Below are positions 2,200 to 41,474 of a stretch of DNA of 64,000 bases, in pieces. Each line of letters starts with the position of its first letter. Position 1 is the first letter of the stretch. Origin of the DNA: Escherichia phage Ec_MI-02. Made by a program: the position numbers and the translations under genes. The stretch is taken from the sequence record OP856590.1; one strand, given 5' to 3'. The notes beneath the pieces are model-generated. The model ran no database searches and was not told where the DNA came from. It was given only the letters and a program-made list of their open reading frames with translations.

Positions 2200-2403
2200 T
2201 TAATTCATATTGCGTTTAATAACTTCGGCAACTTCTAGTAGTTCATCTTTAGTTGCGGTGTCGGATTGAATTTTATCTCTAATATCCTTAAAGCGGTTTT
2301 TAAACTCTTCGGCTTCTCCCATATCGAAAAAGCGTTGAATGATTCTATATTCTCGATGAACTGCTTTATCAAAAAGTTCTAAATTTACTTTATATGATTT
2401 CAT
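2200..2403 (-). CDS. rIIA.1: small hypothetical protein at the rIIA.1 position (67 aa)
   Basis: ATG start; between topoisomerase gene and rIIA; early promoter immediately upstream. Confidence 0.6.
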
Positions 2404-2428
2404 TTCAATATCCTCATTTGCCCAATTA

Positions 2429-2458
2429 ATTATACCACATCCTTGTGGTAAAGTAAAC
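2429..2458 (-). promoter_or_regulatory. T4 early-type promoter (GTTTAC -35, TATAAT -10) for rIIA.1/rIIA
   Basis: minus strand GTTTAC-N18-TATAAT; near-identical copy at 48083..48112. Confidence 0.6.
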
Positions 2459-4275
2459 TACTGGCTCATCCATTCTTTACGAAGGTCAGCATTATCTCCC
2501 ATGAGCATTTCAAAAAGCTCTTTCCAATTCTCAGGAAGTTTAACAACATCATATACCGGGTTTTGAATCATCTCACGATATTCAGATTTTTCCAAAGAGC
2601 CAAGTCCCTTAATATAACGGATGCTATGTTTAGGTAGAGCATCTTTGGCACTCTCATATTCAGCGACTGTATAAAACCATTCTTGTTTTTTACCGACCTG
2701 AGCGATGATTACAGGAGTTTTGACGAAACGAATTCTTCCTTGTTCAAACAGTTCTGGCCAATTACTAAAAAATCCGAGCAGAGAAGGATAAATGCTTCCT
2801 AGACCATCGTGGTCAGCATCGGTCATAATAGCAATATTATGATAATTCAAGTTTTCGGCTTTTTCACCAAGAACTAATCCAGTGATTGCGCAAATATCAA
2901 ACAGTTCTTTGTTTTTAAGCATATCAGCATATGACATACCCCAACTGTTGAGAACTTTACCACGTAATGGATAACCACCGTGAAGTTCTTTATCACGAAC
3001 ATCAATAAGATATCCGATAGCAGAATCACCCTCAGTCAAGAAAAGAGTCGTGTCAGCATCTTTACCACAAAGATTCGCTTTAATATGTTTATGAACCTTA
3101 GCTTTAGAGGCCTTTTTAGCTGCTTTAGTTTCTGCTGCTTTTTCTGCTGCCAATTTACGAGCCAAGGCAGCTTCAATAATTGGCATTAAAATTGCTTCAT
3201 TGTTTAAAATAGCGCGTGAAATCTTTTTAGCATCAAGCTGAATATGACTACGAATTTCACCAAATGGAGAAGTCAAACGCTCTTTAGTCTGAGCATCAAA
3301 TCGCATGTTTTTCATATCACGAACAAACATAACGATAGTCAAACATTCTTTAACACGTGCTTTAGTTACATCAATTTTGAACTTACGTTTGATTTGTGGA
3401 ATAAGGTCTTCACAAATATCATCCATAACACAGTCAATGTGATGACCACCATTCTTAGTATGAATGTTATTGACGTATGTTAATTGACGAAAACCATCCG
3501 GTGAACGACCAACCGCAATAGAACAATTTTCTTGTTCTTGAACAATAGCATGCTCATCATATTGGCGTGCATATTTCTTAAAATTACCCTGAACCTTTTT
3601 ACCGTTAAAGGTAAATTGAATATCAGGATAAACTACTGCAAGTGTCTGGAGACGATCTAGTGTAATGTCAAGATAAACCTGAGATAGCTCATTAGTTTCA
3701 AATGACATAAAATCAGGAATGAAAGTAACACGAGTTCCTTTCCATTTTCCAGGAATATCTTCCCATGATTTATTTTCCATGCCATTTGAACAACGAACTA
3801 CAATATTATTTTGACCGTCGCCAGTTTCACCGACAAACATTACAGAAAAAATGTTAGTTAAACTAGAACCAACACCGTTCATACCGCCAGTGACGCGTTC
3901 TTTATCATCACCGAAGTTACCACCTGCTTTTGGAATAGTCCAGGCAGCAACAGGACCAGGAATTTCTTCGCCGGTAGGTGTTTTAACCATCGCTTGTGGA
4001 ATACCACGACCGTTATCTTCAACTGTTACTTGATTGTTTTTAATAGTAACATTAATTTTATTCGCGAATTTAAACTTAGTACGAATACCTTCATCTACTG
4101 AGTTATCGATAATTTCATCAATAAGCTTAACAAGACCAGGTACATACTGAACACTTTCCCATTTACCAAACAGAAAGCGCTCATGCATTTCATTAGCAGA
4201 AGAGCCAATATACATGCCGCTACGCTTTTTGATATGTTCAATATCGCTCAGAATTTTAATTTCATTCTTAATCAT
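2458..4275 (-). CDS. 39: DNA topoisomerase II large subunit, fused gp39+gp60 (605 aa)
   Basis: GyrB-like ATPase start MIKNEIKILSDIEHIKKRSGMYIGSS; continuous ORF; track start at 4278 is GTG, ATG one codon later. Confidence 0.9.
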   Translation of the reverse strand: MIKNEIKILSDIEHIKKRSGMYIGSSANEMHERFLFGKWESVQYVPGLVKLIDEIIDNSVDEGIRTKFKFANKINVTIKNNQVTVEDNGRGIPQAMVKTPTGEEIPGPVAAWTIPKAGGNFGDDKERVTGGMNGVGSSLTNIFSVMFVGETGDGQNNIVVRCSNGMENKSWEDIPGKWKGTRVTFIPDFMSFETNELSQVYLDITLDRLQTLAVVYPDIQFTFNGKKVQGNFKKYARQYDEHAIVQEQENCSIAVGRSPDGFRQLTYVNNIHTKNGGHHIDCVMDDICEDLIPQIKRKFKIDVTKARVKECLTIVMFVRDMKNMRFDAQTKERLTSPFGEIRSHIQLDAKKISRAILNNEAILMPIIEAALARKLAAEKAAETKAAKKASKAKVHKHIKANLCGKDADTTLFLTEGDSAIGYLIDVRDKELHGGYPLRGKVLNSWGMSYADMLKNKELFDICAITGLVLGEKAENLNYHNIAIMTDADHDGLGSIYPSLLGFFSNWPELFEQGRIRFVKTPVIIAQVGKKQEWFYTVAEYESAKDALPKHSIRYIKGLGSLEKSEYREMIQNPVYDVVKLPENWKELFEMLMGDNADLRKEWMSQ

Positions 4276-13257: not shown

Positions 13258-13728
13258 CTAGCGATAAAAACCAAAATGACGATTAGCTTCAATAATCTTT
13301 CTTTCTTCTTCGGACATTCTCCAGCGTAGTCCAACATCAAAATGAGCCCAGACCATCTTAACAAATGCATTTATATCTTTAATATCTTCAATAATGAATG
13401 TTTTACTTTTAGAAGGTTGACTAGCTAATTTAACTTTATCGTCTTCAAACAGGTCAAAAAGACCATATTCATGAGCTCTTTTATAGCCTTTAATAGTTAA
13501 AGCTTCAGAAGAAGAAAACGGTGAATCAGTATTCTGCAAAATATCTTCAGTATGCTTTATAATTAGAATAACATTTTCTGGATATTTTCTTTCTTTTATA
13601 TCTTTAATTAAAATATCCGGATTTTCTGCTAAAGGAATAATTAATGAGCACTCTTTATCAAGTGTATTTACTGATTTACCTTCTTTAGACATAAATTCTA
13701 TTGAATAATGTTTTGCTACTTCAATCAT
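13258..13728 (-). CDS. hypothetical protein (156 aa)
   Basis: ATG start. Confidence 0.55.
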
Positions 13729-13885: not shown

Positions 13886-14085
13886 GATTTATCCCCATAG
13901 ATGTCTCTCATCAATTTAAGCGCTGAGCGTTCTAATTTCTTTTCTTTCTCAGCACTAATCATTGATTTCATCCATTCTTCTGATTCGTTCTGTATTTCTT
14001 TATTTGCCTGTTCAACCCAACCATCATCAATATACATTGAGTTTGGTCTACTGAACCATTCAAGCATCTTCTTCAGAACTTTCAT
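13882..14085 (-). CDS. hypothetical protein (67 aa)
   Basis: ATG start. Confidence 0.45.
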
Positions 14086-14545
14086 TTGTTTTACCTAAAA
14101 CAATAGTAGGAGCATCGTCAAATTCATGAATTTTTAGCAATTTTGGATTTAAATTATTCCATACATAATAAATAAAGTATGATAAAGCATCTTCACTCGC
14201 AATTATAAATTTATTTCCTTTATCTATTTTCCAGTCATATACTGAATCGTACGAATAAAAAGATAAAGGGTTATCATTATATTGTTCTGCGCTAACATTA
14301 ATGTATTCGGATTTAGTAAATGCTTCAATTGCTCTAAACGGACTATTTGACACAGTTTCAATAATTCCGATCTTTTTAAGTTTTATTTCAGCATCTTCTG
14401 GAACTGGCATTGAAACGAAATTTTCTACGAGATACATAGGGTTACGATAACCCTTATCAATCATTACGGCTACAGTAATTGGAACGTCTTTAGCAAACGA
14501 CATACTATTACTGCTAATATACATTTCAAACAAAATCGCTTCCAT
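14060..14545 (-). CDS. hypothetical protein (161 aa), possible mrh equivalent
   Basis: track start TTG; ATG at MEAILFEMY with GAGGAAA SD; length matches T4 Mrh by memory only. Confidence 0.45.
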
Positions 14546-14553
14546 AATTTTCC

Positions 14554-14892
14554 TCAATCACAAGATGTAGATGAACAACTAGAATCACAAGAACTTCCAC
14601 ATGAATCGCCCGTCCACACATGAACAGGAACATTAGTATCATATGAATCAGAACTAGACTGTGTATTCTGCGTATTAGATGATGTAGGTGTTGACCAGCG
14701 CCAAGGATTTTTATAATATTCTTGGGCTTCTTCATAAGTCATAGTAACTGCTTCTACTGTTCCATCTCCCATATAAACATATTCAACTACAGTTAAAGGA
14801 AGGTAGTCGTTTGAAATAGGAACTACACCTTCTCCGGGAGTTGTAGAGAAAAAATCCGTAAAGAAACTTTTAAACCAATTAAAGATAAACAT
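14554..14892 (-). CDS. hypothetical protein with Cys/Ser-rich C-terminal tail (112 aa)
   Basis: ATG start; C-terminus [17 protein letters not shown]. Confidence 0.5.
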
Positions 14893-15643: not shown

Positions 15644-15844
15644 TCATTTTGAATGCTCTATAATTAATTTTAAGGCTTCTTTACTGACAAAAATTTCATC
15701 AAGACCTTCTTCTACACCCCAATCAACTGCACGAAGCTGATTAGATAAGAGCTCGTATGTGAGCTCTTTGTCATAATTTTTAAATAGCTGGTCAATACGT
15801 TTCTTGTGGGCTTTCTTAAGCTGGCGTTTATTTAAACGAGCCAT
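15644..15844 (-). CDS. hypothetical protein (66 aa)
   Basis: ATG start; ATGA overlap with gene 56. Confidence 0.5.
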   Translation of the reverse strand: MARLNKRQLKKAHKKRIDQLFKNYDKELTYELLSNQLRAVDWGVEEGLDEIFVSKEALKLIIEHSK

Positions 15845-16362
15845 TAATAACCTCGGTCTTGACGAGCGAAGTTTTCAGCATTTTTCAGATAATAAAGTTT
15901 AAAGATTTCTTCAGCTGACATTCCAAGAGCAATAAATTTATTCATGAAAAAGTGAAATTGATCAATCAATTCAAATTTAATTTCAAGTTGATCTTCAGGA
16001 GATAAATCTTGAATTTTCTTGGATTGCATTTCAGAATAACGTTTCTTCCAAGGTTTCCATACAGCAGAAGCTTCTTTTTCGCCATTACTCATACCACCAA
16101 GAGAAGTATATAGCTCGCGAGTTTCGTCTGCGATATAATCGTCTTGGTTTCGCAGCCAAGCAAGAACTTCTCCTGCAGTTTCAAGTGAATCGGGATGACG
16201 ATTTGTTTCTGGTTTATCATTAGCCAAACGAATCTGTAAATGCCGCTGCATATCAAGCATAACTTGCAGTGGGTCAATATTGTGCATAATATTCTCAGCA
16301 TATGCACGATTTGCTTTATCAACACCTTCGATCAAATGAGCGCATTCATTAAAGTAAGCCAT
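15844..16362 (-). CDS. 56: dCTPase/dUTPase gp56-like (172 aa)
   Basis: position between soc and 61; track ORF (203 aa) trimmed to first ATG with AAGGA SD; identity by position and size. Confidence 0.6.
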   Translation of the reverse strand: MAYFNECAHLIEGVDKANRAYAENIMHNIDPLQVMLDMQRHLQIRLANDKPETNRHPDSLETAGEVLAWLRNQDDYIADETRELYTSLGGMSNGEKEASAVWKPWKKRYSEMQSKKIQDLSPEDQLEIKFELIDQFHFFMNKFIALGMSAEEIFKLYYLKNAENFARQDRGY

Positions 16363-16433
16363 TATTTTTCCTTTCAATTCATGGGTTAGTAGATTAATTA
16401 TACAATAAATATATAAAGCAATAAGGAGGATAT

Positions 16434-16634
16434 ATGGTACAAAAATTAATGGCACTTGTTAATGCCATAAAAGGTAATAAAAAACGTATAGCTTTTACTA
16501 TTTCTGCTATGATAGGAATTTTACTCTGGAATTTTGTTTTATCACCAATTGCTATTGCTCATGGTGTTAATATTCCAGTAATTACTCTTGATACATTCGT
16601 AGATTTAGCATTTGCTTTAGTTGGGTTAATTTAA
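16434..16634 (+). CDS. small single-pass membrane protein (66 aa), plus strand
   Basis: ATG 4 nt after AAGGAGG SD; hydrophobic helix AFTISAMIGILLWNFVLSPIAIA; convergent with gene 61 (stop codons overlap). Confidence 0.45.
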   Translation: MVQKLMALVNAIKGNKKRIAFTISAMIGILLWNFVLSPIAIAHGVNIPVITLDTFVDLAFALVGLI

Positions 16635-17659
16635 ATCTTAGCATATTTAGATAGCCGCATTTTAGCCATCAACCCTTGGGCAATATTATTTTTCATATAT
16701 TCCATAATTTGTTTAGGGGTTGCACCTTCCTTTCTAATCATATCATTAACATCTTTTGATTTCCAGGGAGATTTATCCCAAAACATAACCCTTTCTCCTG
16801 CATCAACTAATTTAGTCATTCGTTTAATAGTGTCAGGGTGACGAGGTTCATTATCTAAAACCCACACACGTCTATCTTTAAATGGAACAATTTCTAGGTC
16901 TAATTGACCGCCCGTAATAGCTATACCATTTTCAATAAAAAGTGAATCTATAGGTCCTTCTAGAACATATACATCACCATCTTTGACTCGTTCAACTCCA
17001 TAAATTTTTGTTGCCTCAGGATAAGCTTTGATGGTGATATATTTTTGAGGAGCATCTTTCTTTAATGCACGTCCTTGAAAAGACTCAGCTTTTCCATTAG
17101 CATTATAAATTGGAATAACAAGACGAGGCTCAGGTATTTCCTTTTTATATGTTCCTGGCGCTATACTATTAACTAATTTAGGCCATTCGGTTGTAAACCA
17201 AAGATATTTCCATTTATCCTTTGGAATACAACGAGCTTTTACATATTTTATAATTGGATGGTCTTCCGCCAATTTATCTAATCTAATGCATGACGGAAGA
17301 GATTTAATTATTTTCTTCTCAGGTTGTTTAGGAAGTTCTTTAGGTTTTTCTACTGGACGACTTTTACCTTTTTCTTTTCTTATTTCAAAGATATATTCAC
17401 GATATAAATCAGGTTCAAACTCCTTTAAATATATTCCGATTGGTGCATGATAGTTACAGTTATAACAATGAATATTTCCTTCATTATTATCGCCATAATA
17501 CCATCCACGGGCTTTATTTTGGTCGGTTTTTGAATCTCCACAAACAGGGCATCTAAACCGTAATTTAAAAGTTGAACTATTATTTACTTGTGCGAATTTA
17601 GGTAAATGAGCTAATGCACGGTATGCAAACTCATTATCAATCCAAGGTATTGATGACAT
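16631..17659 (-). CDS. 61: DNA primase gp61 (342 aa)
   Basis: 342 aa; N-terminal zinc ribbon CPVCGDSK...CYNC; ATG confirmed. Confidence 0.9.
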   Translation of the reverse strand: MSSIPWIDNEFAYRALAHLPKFAQVNNSSTFKLRFRCPVCGDSKTDQNKARGWYYGDNNEGNIHCYNCNYHAPIGIYLKEFEPDLYREYIFEIRKEKGKSRPVEKPKELPKQPEKKIIKSLPSCIRLDKLAEDHPIIKYVKARCIPKDKWKYLWFTTEWPKLVNSIAPGTYKKEIPEPRLVIPIYNANGKAESFQGRALKKDAPQKYITIKAYPEATKIYGVERVKDGDVYVLEGPIDSLFIENGIAITGGQLDLEIVPFKDRRVWVLDNEPRHPDTIKRMTKLVDAGERVMFWDKSPWKSKDVNDMIRKEGATPKQIMEYMKNNIAQGLMAKMRLSKYAKI

Positions 17660-20759: not shown

Positions 20760-21104
20760 TTAAAAGAATTTAAATTTTTTCTTTGGCCTTTTATTAAACG
20801 CATCTTGTAGTTGCATTGTAATACATTTTTCTACATGAGGAGCTAACTCAGCTTTTCTTTCTTGGTCAAGAACAGCAAAGTCCATTACGACTTTTCCATC
20901 AACCCAATCTAATTTTGTCACATACGCGATGTGTGTAGAACCGTCTTCTAGTTTAATGACAATCTCCTGGATAACATTTTCCATGGCAGATTTAATTATC
21001 TTAAGAGATTCATTAAAAAGACGTTCTTTTCTTTCTTCTTCCCCCTCCGAAGAGGGGGATTCATCGATAATTTCTAGATCTAAATCTAAATCATCTTTAT
21101 TCAT
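20760..21104 (-). CDS. 40: gp40 head vertex assembly chaperone-like (about 114 aa)
   Basis: between uvsX and 41; track start 21122 is GTG overlapping uvsX, ATG at 21104 with weak SD chosen. Confidence 0.55.
   Translation of the reverse strand: MNKDDLDLDLEIIDESPSSEGEEERKERLFNESLKIIKSAMENVIQEIVIKLEDGSTHIAYVTKLDWVDGKVVMDFAVLDQERKAELAPHVEKCITMQLQDAFNKRPKKKFKFF
21041..21058 (-). other. stable GC hairpin with UUCG loop inside gene 40 coding sequence
   Basis: CCCCCUC-UUCG-GAGGGGG (7 bp stem). Confidence 0.6.
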
Positions 21105-22278
21105 TAAATTCTTCCATATCACTTAACTGATCTAGGTCAGTTTCTAAATCAGCTGCTGATTTACTTTTACTTTCTGGAGATTTAAATTTTTCAACCTTTG
21201 AGTTAATCAATTCATCAACTTCAGCTTCAACAATTTCATTACTATCAATAGCACCTAACTGATAAGCACGTTTAATAGCATCTCGGAATGGCTGATGCTT
21301 AAATAAAGGACCCCAGAATGTAGTGCAGTTAGTATCTTTTGCACGCCAAGATTTTTCTTCGCGAATCATCTCACCGGTTTCTTCGTCAAGAAATTCACGA
21401 GCATACCAGCCATTTTTAGGTTTTACCACAAATCCTAATTCTAGAGCCATATCTAACAATCCAGAATAAGGATCGATGCCACCGTCAAATTTAACATCAA
21501 TAAAGAATTTACTTTTTTCTTTGACGGTACGAGATTTTTCTACATTTAGAACAAATTGATACCCCTGAAGATCAGAACCATCTTTAATCTGGCGCTTACC
21601 GATAATGAATACGGTATCAGCCGAATACATTACGCCTGTACCACCTGTCATCACGGTTTTACTAAACATTTCAATTGTTTCAATTGTATGGTTAACCGCA
21701 ACGCATGGAATGTTTTTAATACTAAAATAAGGAGTAACAATACGGAATAATGACTTCAGTGATTTAGCACGAGTCATATCTGCCACAGATTTTTCATTCA
21801 AGGCATCTTCCGTTTCTTTCTTAGAAGCCATATTACCGATTGAGTCGATGAATACAATAACTTTTTCACCGCGCTCAATAGCTTCAAGCTGATTCACCAT
21901 ATCAATTTTCAGCTGTTCAACTGACTGGATTGGTGTATGAATTACTCGTTCCGGGTCAACTCCCATGGATCGCAAATAAGCTGGAGTAATACCAAATTCG
22001 CTATCATAGAATAGACATACCGCGTCAGGATATTTGTTCAAATACGCCGCAACCATAGTCAAAGACATATTTGATTTAAAGTGTTTAGAAGGACCTGCAA
22101 AAATGGTTAAACCAGACTGCATACCACCATCAATCGCACCAGAAATAGCGATATTAAGCATTGGGATTTTTGTACGGATTACATCCTTTTCATTAAAGAA
22201 TTTAGATGTAGTCAGTTCAGCAGTCATTTTAGAAGTGGAAGCTTTAATCAAACGGGATTTTAAATCTGCAATAGACAT
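21097..22278 (-). CDS. uvsX: UvsX recombinase (RecA-like, 393 aa)
   Basis: RecA fold motifs; MSIADLKSRLIKASTSK start; ATG confirmed. Confidence 0.95.
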   Translation of the reverse strand: MSIADLKSRLIKASTSKMTAELTTSKFFNEKDVIRTKIPMLNIAISGAIDGGMQSGLTIFAGPSKHFKSNMSLTMVAAYLNKYPDAVCLFYDSEFGITPAYLRSMGVDPERVIHTPIQSVEQLKIDMVNQLEAIERGEKVIVFIDSIGNMASKKETEDALNEKSVADMTRAKSLKSLFRIVTPYFSIKNIPCVAVNHTIETIEMFSKTVMTGGTGVMYSADTVFIIGKRQIKDGSDLQGYQFVLNVEKSRTVKEKSKFFIDVKFDGGIDPYSGLLDMALELGFVVKPKNGWYAREFLDEETGEMIREEKSWRAKDTNCTTFWGPLFKHQPFRDAIKRAYQLGAIDSNEIVEAEVDELINSKVEKFKSPESKSKSAADLETDLDQLSDMEEFNE

Positions 22279-22355
22279 TCATTTTTTCCATAGGCATCAT
22301 TATATTTTCCTCACTGGTTAAAGATAGAGTAATTATAACACAATAAATTTAGGCA

Positions 22356-23198
22356 TTAATCAACTGCTATTGGATGAATAGCATTAAACTTATGAAACGC
22401 TTCTGATTTTTCTTTGCGCGAAACACACATGCGAAGAACCTTTAATGGCTCGTCTTCTTCACCCAACGATTTTCTCTTTTCGATATTCGATGTTTTCCAA
22501 CGAGCTTGCTCTGGAAACTCTCTATTGATTTGCTCAAGAGCTCTATTATGTTTTGAATTACTACGAATTGAACTACACCCGCCAGGAGCTTGTGCTTTTC
22601 CAGATACAACCAGATATTTGAACAAGGCCAAATGCGGATAACCTTGATTAATTAAATTGAGAAATGCATACATATCTTCGCATAAATCAATTTTTCCATA
22701 CCCAATTTGTTCTGTTGTAAGTTTCCCGAGGTCATACCAAGTATTCGTGAATCCATATGAATTTTCACGATAATTACCCCAAGATGAAGTAATTTTAAAA
22801 ATAGGCAGACGAGCATGACCATGATAATACCCGCAATCCATGGCATCTTCAACGTATTGAATCAATTCATAGAACTGTTCACGAGTTAATTGATTAATTT
22901 TATCTACGCAGCGACGATCATCTTTCTTTCGCATTGAACTCATACGAATAGTAGTATCATCATCAATCATCCAAATTCGTTGACCTGCATACATATCAGT
23001 AATTGCTTTACGAGTACCAGCAATTCCGTTAACATCATCAGGAATAGTTATAATTTTAGCTCTAGACCCGTAAGCGTTATAATAAGCTTTTTCTTCGTGT
23101 TCACGTACTACAATATGAGGTTCATAATCAGTCGGAAACATATCAAGGGCAGAAACTGCCCCTACGCGTTGATAGCTTGGAATTACGAATTGAATCAT
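22356..23198 (-). CDS. glycosyltransferase at the beta-gt locus (280 aa), probable HMC-DNA glucosyltransferase
   Basis: between uvsX and 42; WMIDDDT DxD-like motif; not the 351 aa T4 beta-gt; track start GTG, ATG two codons later with ATGA overlap to 42. Confidence 0.6.
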   Translation of the reverse strand: MIQFVIPSYQRVGAVSALDMFPTDYEPHIVVREHEEKAYYNAYGSRAKIITIPDDVNGIAGTRKAITDMYAGQRIWMIDDDTTIRMSSMRKKDDRRCVDKINQLTREQFYELIQYVEDAMDCGYYHGHARLPIFKITSSWGNYRENSYGFTNTWYDLGKLTTEQIGYGKIDLCEDMYAFLNLINQGYPHLALFKYLVVSGKAQAPGGCSSIRSNSKHNRALEQINREFPEQARWKTSNIEKRKSLGEEDEPLKVLRMCVSRKEKSEAFHKFNAIHPIAVD

Positions 23199-23935
23199 TT
23201 CCACTCACCTTTATAATCTTTTTTCACAATATGAGTTTCGCCAGTATTCCACCAATGATCAACCAAGTAAAAATGACGAGAATATACATGAAGACTTCCA
23301 ACATTCCATATAATAGAACCTGCTTTATACTGACGAGTTGAATCGCCTGCATTCAAGTCAGATACTAATTTATCTAGTACGTATTTTTGCCATGCATAAT
23401 CATTACGGAATCCGAAGACCACGTCATTTGAACGCATGCTTACTACTGCATTGACTTTCTTATCACGAATCAGGTACTGCACTGTATTAGTACACATGAA
23501 ATCTGACATACCATCTTTATTGTAGTCAAACTGCATGGATGGACGAGTATAAATCATGATACCACGCCGAGAATCAGGATTTTGACCAAGTTCAGCTAAA
23601 CACATATCATACTGGGCATAGTTATCTTCTGACCAGATGGCCCAACCATAATTCGAGTTAATTTCGCCTTTAGAAGATGCTACCTGCTGCCAAATCTTCG
23701 GTGTTTCACCCGGAATATCTTTAACAAACAAACTTTTAGATTTATACCATTCAAGTTCACGTTGAATGTATTCATCATTAAGAGCGCCAAAAATAAACGG
23801 TTCATCTGCTACAAATGATGCACCAATAATTTCAATAGTTTTAACACCAGTTTTATCAACTACGAAATCTTTTTCTTTTAATGCAAGCCCCAAATGAAGA
23901 CGGATTTCTTCAACTGTCATAGAGTCACTAATCAT
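23195..23935 (-). CDS. 42: dCMP hydroxymethylase gp42 (246 aa)
   Basis: 246 aa; thymidylate-synthase-like fold; ATG confirmed. Confidence 0.9.
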   Translation of the reverse strand: MISDSMTVEEIRLHLGLALKEKDFVVDKTGVKTIEIIGASFVADEPFIFGALNDEYIQRELEWYKSKSLFVKDIPGETPKIWQQVASSKGEINSNYGWAIWSEDNYAQYDMCLAELGQNPDSRRGIMIYTRPSMQFDYNKDGMSDFMCTNTVQYLIRDKKVNAVVSMRSNDVVFGFRNDYAWQKYVLDKLVSDLNAGDSTRQYKAGSIIWNVGSLHVYSRHFYLVDHWWNTGETHIVKKDYKGEWK

Positions 23936-33143: not shown

Positions 33144-34159
33144 TGTGTTGCCTCTACATATAACTGATTTGCATATTGAATAAGTGCTTCGCGATCAGAA
33201 TCAGTGATGTCTGGAATTGCATTAATGTATTCTTCCATCAACGTCTGAAGAGATTGAACTTCAACTTCTTCACTATCATCTGACTCGACAGAGTTATCAA
33301 TCTTTGACACAACTCGTAATGAATGCACAACTTTTTCTAGTTCAGATTCGAACTTCGTTAGATTTTTGTCTACTTCAGTTACTATAACACGTACTGATAG
33401 ATTTGTAAAATCTTTATAGTCAATTTTTCCTTTAAATGGATAATGAATTCTACGATGCCAGGTAGTGTTGTTTGGAATAAATTCCATTCGTTCTGTTTCT
33501 GTATCAAACATCCAGAACCCACGAGGGTCATTCTCGTCACCTGCAGTTAGTGTCCATGGTGTCCCAATATATCTGACGTTAGCAGCCTCAGAAATAGTAT
33601 GGAAGTGACCAGACCACACCTCTTTATAAGTCTTAAGGAAATCAGGTTCAAGACCGTGAGATTTCATTCCTTTATAAAAATAAAATCCATTCAGCTCCCA
33701 GTGACCAACACAAAAAGAAGCAGATGAAGTTTTGATGTGTTCAAGAATTTCACCAGTATTTTCTTCACACATCCAAGGAATTAAATCAATCAAACATCCG
33801 TCAAAATCTACTGTAGTAGGCTTATCATATACTTTAACATTAGGGTATTTAGCCAAAAGCTCAGTAGAAGCATTTGGATGCATTACATTTTTGTAGTGGA
33901 GATCGTGATTTCCTACAATAGTATGTAATGTGATTCCAGCGTCATCAAGCATTTGAACTATTTCACGAGCAAACTCCATAGTTTTATGTGTGATTGCTTT
34001 TCGCACATCAAAAATATCACCATATTGAATCCATACAGTAATTCCATTTTTCTTAGAATATTCTATCGCTTGCTTAATTCCATCAATTTGAATACCGCGA
34101 ATCCACTCATCATCAGCTTTAACGCCTAAATGCCAATCACCCAAGTTTAGTATTTTCAT
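33140..34159 (-). CDS. 47: recombination nuclease subunit gp47 (SbcD/Mre11-like, 339 aa)
   Basis: calcineurin-like phosphoesterase motifs GDWHLG, GNHD; 339 aa. Confidence 0.9.
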   Translation of the reverse strand: MKILNLGDWHLGVKADDEWIRGIQIDGIKQAIEYSKKNGITVWIQYGDIFDVRKAITHKTMEFAREIVQMLDDAGITLHTIVGNHDLHYKNVMHPNASTELLAKYPNVKVYDKPTTVDFDGCLIDLIPWMCEENTGEILEHIKTSSASFCVGHWELNGFYFYKGMKSHGLEPDFLKTYKEVWSGHFHTISEAANVRYIGTPWTLTAGDENDPRGFWMFDTETERMEFIPNNTTWHRRIHYPFKGKIDYKDFTNLSVRVIVTEVDKNLTKFESELEKVVHSLRVVSKIDNSVESDDSEEVEVQSLQTLMEEYINAIPDITDSDREALIQYANQLYVEATQ

Positions 34160-34760
34160 GGTGTCTTTTCCATCCCAATTTAGCTGCTTTTGAAACTAGT
34201 TCTTTAATTTTTCCTTTTGTCCATTCAGGACCAGGAGGTTCATGACATAACATTTGCTTAACTCCGTTATTATACCATTTTTTACCTTTATTATGTGATG
34301 AAGCTTTAAATTTATTTGACCTTCCTTTTACATAACCTTCTGGAATATAAGGTAAAAAGGCAGATTTTCCTGTTAATGGATCATGTGAATGTATATTTCC
34401 TTTACAATTATGAGAACCATATAATGGATGATTTTGTCCTTTATTATCTCTTCCAAATGAACCTTTTGGAGCAGCATATGACATATTAAAGAATAATGGA
34501 TTTTTAACTGCATCGTGCAATCGTTGATAATATAACTCGCATTTAATAGCTTCTTCACGCGTATCAAATTCAGCTAAAATGCATGAATCAAATAAATGAG
34601 GATTATCTGAAAGCTCTTTATTATAAATTTTCTTATACTTTTTAGATAAAACTGACCCATGATATCCAGCTAAATGCCTATCTAAAGATGTAGATCCAAT
34701 ATAAAAAGGAGGAAGTTTATCTCCACTATATATGGTTAAATAAGTTATATATTTTTTCAT
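34137..34760 (-). CDS. GIY-YIG family homing endonuclease-like protein (seg-like, 207 aa)
   Basis: N-terminal TIYSG...FYIGST...R..H...E motif; C-terminal NUMOD3-like GKKWYNNG; overlaps gene 47 start by 23 nt. Confidence 0.65.
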   Translation of the reverse strand: MKKYITYLTIYSGDKLPPFYIGSTSLDRHLAGYHGSVLSKKYKKIYNKELSDNPHLFDSCILAEFDTREEAIKCELYYQRLHDAVKNPLFFNMSYAAPKGSFGRDNKGQNHPLYGSHNCKGNIHSHDPLTGKSAFLPYIPEGYVKGRSNKFKASSHNKGKKWYNNGVKQMLCHEPPGPEWTKGKIKELVSKAAKLGWKRHHENTKLG

Positions 34761-34920: not shown

Positions 34921-34938
34921 AAAGGGCCGAAGCCCTTT
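34921..34938 (-). terminator. GC hairpin with UUCG loop after a-gt
   Basis: AAAGGGC-UUCG-GCCCUUU. Confidence 0.55.
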
Positions 34939-36139
34939 ATTTTGTAATAATGTCAAACTGTTCTTTAAAGCAGAAGCTTGAATCTTGATGTTGATACAAA
35001 AATTCATACGCTTTTTCTCGCTCACGGTCATAAAGAGCTCGGTCAGATGACAGTTCTTTAATACGCTCGAATGTTGATTCCATATCATTTTCATCAAACC
35101 AAACGATACCGCTATCATGCGAAATTAGCGGAGTATTATCAACACGGAATTTTAAATTTTCGCCAGTAGATTTCCAAAATACCGGAATTGTTCCACATGC
35201 ACCAAGCTCGAGATGAGTATATTCTAAAGAACGTTGTAGATATTTTTTATCCAACTTACTCAACTGATAACCAAATCCGGATTTACTCATACGTTCAAGC
35301 ATTTCGCTATTTACATAACGGTCAAGAATTTGCGTTGGCAAATTAGGAGCAATTTTAATTTGGTCTACTTGATGAAGACGATAATATTCGTATGGAATTC
35401 CTTTTTCTTTAATAGGAATGAACGCAGGAGAACGTTCCAGACCTTCCATAATAGTACTTAGCCCAGCAGGTTTAAGATGTTTTTCGTGAAAATCAAACAT
35501 CTGATAAAAACCTTTCCATGTAGTCGTACGACCAATCCAACGGTTGACATTCATATTAATTTCAGAAACATCTTTCCAGTATGTTGATCGAACCTTCGCA
35601 ATATCCATAGGAGGCTGAAAGTTGTATACAGTCGGTGCTTCTTCAATATCATCAAACAGAGAAACTGTTTCTGGATACCATTCTTTCATCAAAACTTTAT
35701 TAAAATCGCCATTATCAGAATGGCTAAAAATAACATCAGCTCGACGAACAGTTTCTTCTAATCCCAAATTTCGGCGCAAAGAAAGAGAAGAATGGTCATG
35801 TTGATAAACTACAACACGAACCGAAGGTTTAATGTTATCAATAATTTTTTTATAGTTATTAATAGTGTCTTCTTCGACTGAAGTAGCAGGAACTGAATTG
35901 ATAATTAGAATATCACAATCATTTACCAGCTTAAGTGTTTTATCGTATTCTTTTGCCAATAAAACCGGAATTGAAAATGATTTATAATCATGCGCGCAAT
36001 TACGGGTAAATGATTTATCTTTAGCATAAACCAAAGTTACTTCATGACCATTTTTAATAAACCAATCACGTTGCTCGAGAGAAAATTTAGTTACGCCGCA
36101 ACCTTCAAGACCTCGAGCCATAAAAATGCATACTTTCAT
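34937..36139 (-). CDS. a-gt: DNA alpha-glucosyltransferase (400 aa)
   Basis: 400 aa; MKVCIFMARGLEGCGVTKFS start; ATG confirmed. Confidence 0.85.
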   Translation of the reverse strand: MKVCIFMARGLEGCGVTKFSLEQRDWFIKNGHEVTLVYAKDKSFTRNCAHDYKSFSIPVLLAKEYDKTLKLVNDCDILIINSVPATSVEEDTINNYKKIIDNIKPSVRVVVYQHDHSSLSLRRNLGLEETVRRADVIFSHSDNGDFNKVLMKEWYPETVSLFDDIEEAPTVYNFQPPMDIAKVRSTYWKDVSEINMNVNRWIGRTTTWKGFYQMFDFHEKHLKPAGLSTIMEGLERSPAFIPIKEKGIPYEYYRLHQVDQIKIAPNLPTQILDRYVNSEMLERMSKSGFGYQLSKLDKKYLQRSLEYTHLELGACGTIPVFWKSTGENLKFRVDNTPLISHDSGIVWFDENDMESTFERIKELSSDRALYDREREKAYEFLYQHQDSSFCFKEQFDIITK

Positions 36140-40174: not shown

Positions 40175-40645
40175 TTAATCATGTTTCCACACCCCATCGG
40201 TATTTGACCAAAGTCGCTGATTATCTGATCCTCGCCACAACTTTTTGGTCGGAAGATTTTTCTCATACTTCCCATCAATAATAACATCAACATATTTAAG
40301 CATTTCTAGTTGTTTAATATCTTCAAATTTATATCCTGTCCACAACCAAATGCTTTTATTTGGATAAAGATTTTTTACTGTTTGAACAATGCAATGAATA
40401 ACATCTCGGTTATCAGGATAGAGAGGGTCTCCTCCAGTTATAGTTAATCCTTCTATATAATCATTATTCAAACATTTAATTAATTGTTCCAGCGTTTCAC
40501 CAGTGAATGGAACACCGTTTCTAGCATTCCATGTTGATTTATTATAACACCCTTCGCATTTATGCAAACAACCTGTAACGAAAAGAACAGTTCGGCACCC
40601 AGGACCATTAACAAAGCAACACGGATATATTCTGTCATAATTCAT
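40175..40645 (-). CDS. nrdG: anaerobic ribonucleotide reductase activating protein NrdG (156 aa)
   Basis: radical-SAM cluster CLHKCEGC; 156 aa. Confidence 0.85.
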   Translation of the reverse strand: MNYDRIYPCCFVNGPGCRTVLFVTGCLHKCEGCYNKSTWNARNGVPFTGETLEQLIKCLNNDYIEGLTITGGDPLYPDNRDVIHCIVQTVKNLYPNKSIWLWTGYKFEDIKQLEMLKYVDVIIDGKYEKNLPTKKLWRGSDNQRLWSNTDGVWKHD

Positions 40646-41474
40646 TTATATATTTCCAATTATAGCCTTCAACACTTTTACGTTCGCCATTTAAACATTT
40701 TAAAATATTTCCTTTGCTAGAAATATTAAAATATTTTGCTGCGTCTGGTATATAATTAAATGTTTTTAAAAGAACACCATCTTTGTATGCGCCAAATAAA
40801 TTAAGAGTATATTTTTCTCGAAGACGCTGATGTTTCCTTTTCATAACCTCAGGATTTGCATACGCCAGCTTTAATGAATTTCTATGTTTTTCTTTTACTT
40901 CAGGTTTTTGCATTGCTAACTTAGTTAGCCTGGAAATTTTATTTCTAACTTTATCAGTTTTCATTGCATTTGACAAATTTAATAAAGTTTTATTTCTAAC
41001 TTCAGGTTTTTGCATTGCTAACTTAGTTAGTTCGCTATGTCTTTTTCTAAAATCGTCATCTTTCCATATATTTTTCGATAATTTTGACATAGAGCGGTGA
41101 AATAATTCCCTTTCTTTGGAATACAGTTTAAAAATTTCATCCAATTCATCAGTATTAAATCTATCAGTATTCGAGTTTATCATTCTATGAAAGGCATAAC
41201 ACATTTTACTATTACTTGTTTTAGCTAAATAGTAATGAGCCAATGCATGGTCATAATATGACAAATTAACAATATTCCATTTATCTGTTTTATATTCAGG
41301 AAATATAGATTTGGGAAGCACGTGATGTGCTTCCGTTTTCCCCTTTATTTTAGGATTATTATAATTTTTTATTATCAAATCAACATATGACAATAATAAA
41401 TCATTATTTTCTTCAAATATTAAAGTTAATTTATCATTCACAAAATCACAGGGATAAAATCTATCGTAATTCAT
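40635..41474 (-). CDS. HNH homing endonuclease-like protein (mob-like, 279 aa)
   Basis: HNH motif AHHVLPKS...NIVNLSYYDHALAH; inserted between nrdD and nrdG; N-terminus MNYDRFYPC mimics nrdG start. Confidence 0.7.
   Translation of the reverse strand: MNYDRFYPCDFVNDKLTLIFEENNDLLLSYVDLIIKNYNNPKIKGKTEAHHVLPKSIFPEYKTDKWNIVNLSYYDHALAHYYLAKTSNSKMCYAFHRMINSNTDRFNTDELDEIFKLYSKERELFHRSMSKLSKNIWKDDDFRKRHSELTKLAMQKPEVRNKTLLNLSNAMKTDKVRNKISRLTKLAMQKPEVKEKHRNSLKLAYANPEVMKRKHQRLREKYTLNLFGAYKDGVLLKTFNYIPDAAKYFNISSKGNILKCLNGERKSVEGYNWKYINEL

Follow-up and report, generated by a model that had tools for sequence, protein, structure and literature searches.

Which host defences can attack phage DNA depends on the sugar pattern of its cytosines. 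Among phages that encode glucosyltransferases, the majority state is an alpha-GT (or beta-GT) accompanied by a TET-associated glycosyltransferase (TAGT), whereas the alpha-GT and beta-GT pair of T4 is found in only six of 753 genomes (PMC13216743). When the T6 gene for beta-glucosyl-HMC-alpha-glucosyltransferase (ba-GT, gene ba-gt) is deleted, only alpha-glucosyl-hmC remains, and the DNA of the deletion phage can be degraded by the Brig1 glycosylase, which wild-type T6 DNA resists in vitro (PMC11078745). BapA frees glucose from T6 ba-gt-deletion DNA and not from wild-type T6 DNA (bioRxiv 10.64898/2026.02.25.707755). DNA carrying gentiobiosyl-hmC, resistant to Brig1 in vitro (PMC11078745) and not deglucosylated by BapA (bioRxiv 10.64898/2026.02.25.707755), is still targeted by GmrSD-type enzymes (PMC11078745; bioRxiv 10.64898/2026.02.25.707755; PMC13216743). 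The share of diglucosylated cytosines given in the literature is ∼5% in T2 versus ∼72% in T6. In ten environmental Durham Tequatrovirus phages that encode alpha-GT and TAGT but lack beta-GT, HPLC-MS showed alpha-gentiobiosyl-hmdC every time, at ∼40–67% of C, and beta-glucosyl-hmdC in none (PMC13390438). The T6 TAGT has been placed in GT-A, as a sister to GT2, on the basis of an AF3 model (PMC13216743).

The stretch analysed here (the window) comprises 64,000 nucleotides (64 kb) of Escherichia phage Ec_MI-02 (OP856590.1). Beside uvsX it holds a minus-strand ORF that runs uninterrupted over 22356..23204 and would specify 282 aa if started at the GTG at 23204 (ORF listing). An ATG at 23198, two codons 3' of that GTG, yields a 280-aa protein instead, and the T2 annotation uses the identical ATG start and the 280-aa length for its ba-gt orthologue. 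The first-pass annotation had described a 280-aa protein between uvsX and gene 42, and in this it was correct: the ORF is real and uninterrupted and has the flanks claimed for it (Table 1). Gene 42 is annotated at the equivalent position in T6 and T4, with imm and the DNA polymerase gene 43 beyond it in the window, and the gene order 41-40-uvsX-[ba-gt]-42-imm-43 agrees with that of T6 and T2. Base composition is even throughout the region around ba-gt.

Table 1. Coordinates in the window of ba-gt, its neighbours and its proposed partner genes.
Feature	Coordinates	Strand	Evidence
ba-gt (ggt / TAGT), beta-glucosyl-HMC-alpha-glucosyltransferase, 280 aa	22356..23198; stop codon 22356..22358	-	ORF listing, identity, PHROG/Pfam, model
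D79-D80-D81 codons, DxD-type motif in WMIDDDT (residues 76–82)	22956..22964	-	Sequence position, alignment
Spacer between ba-gt and uvsX, 77 nt, holding TGCCTAAATTTATTGTGTTATAAT then a GAGG ribosome-binding site for uvsX	22279..22355	-	Read from sequence
uvsX	21097..22278		PHROG 97, E = 1e-109
ATGA overlap, gene 42 stop / ba-gt start	23195..23198	-	Read directly from sequence
Gene 42, dCMP hydroxymethylase, 246 aa, intact	23195..23935	-	ORF listing; PHROG 160 (thymidylate synthase family), E = 4.9e-67
a-gt, DNA alpha-glucosyltransferase, 400 aa, intact	34937..36139	-	Full-length match to T4 AGT 1XV5, 1Y6F, 1Y8Z, E = 7e-257
Gene 56, dCTPase/dUTPase	15847..16362	-	tblastn of T4 gp56 residues 1–171, 69% identity, E = 3e-76; PHROG 173

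When the 280-aa protein was compared by tblastn with 50,697 phage records, 688 matched, 471 of them at an identity of at least 95%. The protein is 98.2% identical to ba-GT of T2 (PV648363) and 97.5% identical to that of T6 (MH550421), over 280 of 280 residues in both cases, and both orthologues are annotated as beta-glucosyl-HMC-alpha-glucosyltransferase. PHROG 842, which carries the same designation, matches residues 1–275 (E = 5.7e-89), and Pfam PF20691 (TAGT) aligns to residues 3–207 over profile positions 2–205 of 205, with a score of 38.4 bits where the gathering cut-off is 27.5; NCBIfam has no model for either glucosyltransferase. Full-length similarity and the Pfam score both place the protein in the T2/T6 TAGT family, and so does synteny, in that it occupies the slot between gene 42 and uvsX, alpha-gt is present, and a T4-type beta-gt was not found within the 64-kb window. 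We hold it very nearly certain that the ORF is an orthologue of the T2/T6 ba-GT (ggt, TAGT PF20691), a GT-A-fold enzyme of DxD type that makes gentiobiosyl-hmC after alpha-GT has acted; the two identities bear out the initial proposal that a different glucosyltransferase, of T2/T6 type, lies at this locus.

Apart from a stop codon in the T6 record MH550421, the window protein differs from the T2 enzyme by five substitutions and from the T6 enzyme by six, and the three proteins vary at eight positions in total. N41, K92 and I101 are private to the window protein, found in neither T2 nor T6. At the five positions at which the T2 and T6 enzymes differ from each other, it is T6-like at R11 and P251 and T2-like at Y40, D55 and R106, so that the allele mixes residues of both types; the substitutions against T2 and T6 allow no inference of a functional difference. 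The stop codon in MH550421 is an in-frame TAG at codon 10 of ba-gt (SY*RVG; 4028–4030 of the compared T6 segment), where the window has CAA (Gln). The CDS in that record begins at a downstream Met and is 261 aa long, and its product would lose the first GT-A beta-strand. In T6, the classic example of 72% gentiobiosylation, such a stop is unexpected; a mutation in the stock or an error in sequencing may account for it. More distant homologues, at 63–66% identity, adjoin gene 42 in T4-like phages of Klebsiella, Enterobacter, Citrobacter and Salmonella (CC31, S16, Moon and others).

A search of a 5.8-billion-protein collection returned 11 clusters only, and the alignment used for structure prediction comprised nine full-length sequences, extending down to 32% identity. 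D79, D80 and D81 are invariant across these nine aligned homologues. The AlphaFold2 model is of moderate confidence (mean pLDDT 72.6, pTM 0.74); its N-terminal 80 residues reach a pLDDT of 83–95, and the loops 131–151 and 191–211, which fall below 50, are poorly modelled because the alignment is shallow. The DDD stands directly after the beta-strand 74–78 of the model, and a position directly after such a strand is the canonical one for the DxD of GT-A enzymes. GT-A fold matches were found for the model, in agreement with the published placement of the T6 orthologue (PMC13216743), so that a GT-A fold and a conserved acidic motif of DxD type occur together, and the WMIDDDT motif is of the GT-A type, as had been read from the sequence at the outset. 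From its place in the model, the DDD is predicted to bind the metal and the diphosphate of the UDP-sugar and to have a catalytic role.

Between uvsX and gene 42, T4 has segA and b-gt, the latter encoding 351 aa in the T4 record, as the first-pass annotation had stated. That annotation had also proposed an alignment with T4 beta-gt, a full-length match to which would have counted against a different enzyme. Aligned with T4 beta-gt by BLASTP, the window protein gave a best E of 3.4 over eight residues only, and this is no real match, so a full-length alignment is absent. T4 beta-gt and SegA used as tblastn queries found no match in the whole 64-kb window (best E = 1.6). A phmmer search against all PDB chains, which presumably include the T4 BGT structures, gave nothing with E < 0.75 and no glucosyltransferase, its best hits being unrelated RNA-binding proteins. 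Neither the sequence similarity nor the two-Rossmann-domain GT-B fold that define T4 beta-glucosyltransferase was found in the window protein, and the locus seems ‘different’ because T4 served as the reference.

With alpha-gt and genes 42 and 56 all present, the window encodes the route to the acceptor of ba-GT, alpha-glucosyl-hmC. That alpha-gt is intact, as was assumed when the gentiobiosyl pattern was first proposed, is confirmed by its end-to-end alignment with T4 AGT (Table 1). In the proposed pathway the product of gene 56 would clear dCTP and that of gene 42 would make hm-dCMP, such that hmC would replace C in replication. Alpha-GT, a GT-B enzyme, would then add an alpha-linked glucose to hmC in duplex DNA, and ba-GT, using UDP-glucose, would add a second glucose by a beta-1,6 linkage to the alpha-glucose, giving gentiobiosyl-hmC; this transfer probably proceeds with inversion of configuration. 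Some hmC should stay unglucosylated, and beta-monoglucosyl-hmC should be absent, as in T2 and T6. The near-identical orthologues, from which the product is taken, support the view that the phage DNA would carry a T2/T6-like gentiobiosyl-hmC pattern. The same pattern had been suggested in the first-pass annotation, and it corresponds to the published product of alpha-GT paired with ba-GT (PMC11078745, PMC13390438, PMC13216743).

Three other accounts of the 280-aa protein were weighed against its being a ba-GT that extends alpha-glucosyl-hmC. The slot is syntenic with T4 beta-gt, and the orthologue is entered in some GenBank records as ‘b-gt’ or ‘putative beta-glucosyltransferase’, two points that would fit a functional analogue of T4 beta-gt that beta-glucosylates bare hmC directly without extending alpha-glucosyl-hmC. 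We regard such an activity as extremely improbable given that the two proteins share no sequence similarity and the fold is GT-A and not GT-B (PMC13216743), that phages of the same genotype have no detectable beta-glucosyl-hmC (PMC13390438), and that T2 and T6 leave ∼25% of hmC bare, which would be unexpected were the enzyme able to accept hmC. Transfer of a different sugar, or through a different linkage, might be considered on the grounds that TAGT is functionally heterogeneous, with solitary homologues in 288 of 753 phage genomes (PMC13216743) and other members in phages that have beta-GT only, arabinosylation pathways or no other glucosyltransferase, and that homologues at ∼65% identity are known from phages of Klebsiella, Enterobacter, Salmonella and Citrobacter. 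However, an enzyme 97.5–98.2% identical to that of T2 and T6, whose function is known from genetics, is very unlikely to have changed its donor or its linkage, and the alpha-gt that would supply its acceptor is intact in the window; this account, too, is scarcely credible.

A third account concerns the amount of product. The gene could be intact and yet a minor contributor, as in T2 (∼5% gentiobiosyl-hmC), leaving the DNA essentially alpha-monoglucosylated. T2 reaches only that low level of diglucosylation with a near-identical enzyme, so the presence of the gene does not fix the extent of diglucosylation, and the window protein is identical to T2 at three of the five positions that separate T2 from T6 (Y40, D55, R106). 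It is identical to T6 at R11 and P251, however, and all ten measured environmental Tequatrovirus phages of the same genotype have ∼40–67% gentiobiosyl-hmC, against which T2 looks like an outlier. We consider a minor contribution unlikely, though deserving of some weight. Because the allele combines T2 and T6 residues, the extent of diglucosylation is not predictable from sequence; the data from the environmental phages suggest that a large gentiobiosyl fraction is the likelier outcome. Durham Tequatrovirus phages without a Dam-like gene had about two-thirds gentiobiosyl-hmC and little alpha-glucosyl-hmC, a relationship that is a correlation only (PMC13390438), and neither the T4 dam methyltransferase nor segF was found by tblastn in the whole 64-kb window. 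There is perhaps a slim chance that N41, K92 and I101, or the mixture of T2 and T6 residues, set the gentiobiosylated fraction; if so, this would help to explain the long-known gap between T2 (∼5%) and T6 (∼72%).

Returning to ba-gt as an orthologue of the T2/T6 gene, its overlap with gene 42 through ATGA has an annotated equivalent in T2 (CDS 2264–3004 and 3001–3843). The overlap suggests that gene 42 and ba-gt are co-transcribed, and thus co-expressed, and that they are translationally coupled. In the spacer that follows ba-gt, TGCCTAAATTTATTGTGTTATAAT resembles a T4 middle promoter (a MotA-box plus a -10) and is a candidate promoter of that type. The site was absent from the list produced by a sigma-70 scan, and the promoter and terminator scan around ba-gt gave counts not above those of shuffled sequence. 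A 9-bp GC-rich hairpin (TAGGGGCAGTTTCTGCCCTTG) at 23144..23164 on the minus strand, over approximately codons 12–19 of ba-gt, was flagged as terminator-like; such sites are no commoner than in shuffled sequence.

Several other loci in the window were recorded in passing. Gene 56 and the primase gene 61 lie only ∼175 bp apart (15844..17659). A 207-aa ORF at 34137..34760 on the minus strand matches PHROG 10820 ‘HNH endonuclease’ (E = 1e-94) and also PHROG 314 ‘homing endonuclease’; it sits between alpha-gt and a 339-aa gene 47-like ORF, and overlaps the start of the latter by 23 nt. A 279-aa homing-endonuclease-like ORF (40635..41474, minus strand; PHROG 655, E = 1e-36) lies between ORFs of 605 and 156 aa, which we take to be nrdD and nrdG. 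The 156-aa ORF, which lies downstream, has an N-terminus (MNYDRIYPCCFVN) almost the same as the first 13 residues of the 279-aa ORF (MNYDRFYPCDFVN), a resemblance that suggests a target segment duplicated at the site where the 279-aa ORF was inserted. Two adjoining minus-strand ORFs of 156 and 165 aa (13258..13728 and 14060..14557) match the Mrh family PHROG 1234 (E = 4e-53 and 3e-61, respectively) and appear to be tandem paralogues.

The result puts this phage in a common modification class, that of alpha-GT with TAGT; the placement helps annotation and the prediction of host range and restriction, and is not new biology: this is a characterised enzyme family in its usual position with its usual partners, the combination of alpha-GT and TAGT is common in Tequatrovirus, with T4 the exception, and all of this is already known. 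Cellular GT-A enzymes of the GT2 family (TarS, TarP, AvpGT and the catalytic domain of cellulose synthase) resemble ba-GT at only 8–16% identity, in a comparison that covers ba-GT up to its C-terminal ∼70 residues, and their acceptors are lipid, teichoic acid or glycan, whereas that of ba-GT is a sugar on duplex DNA. The beta-gt of T4 shares the slot beside gene 42 and is likewise a UDP-glucose-dependent DNA glucosyltransferase that forms a beta linkage, but it has a GT-B fold and takes bare hmC as its acceptor, in contrast to the GT-A fold and the alpha-glucosyl-hmC acceptor of the window enzyme. In sequence the two show no similarity, and the segA of the T4 locus was not found in the 64-kb window. 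By comparison, the ba-GT of T2 and T6 matches the window protein in length (280 aa), in its start and in its slot between gene 42 and uvsX, and likewise has alpha-gt and genes 42 and 56 as partners.
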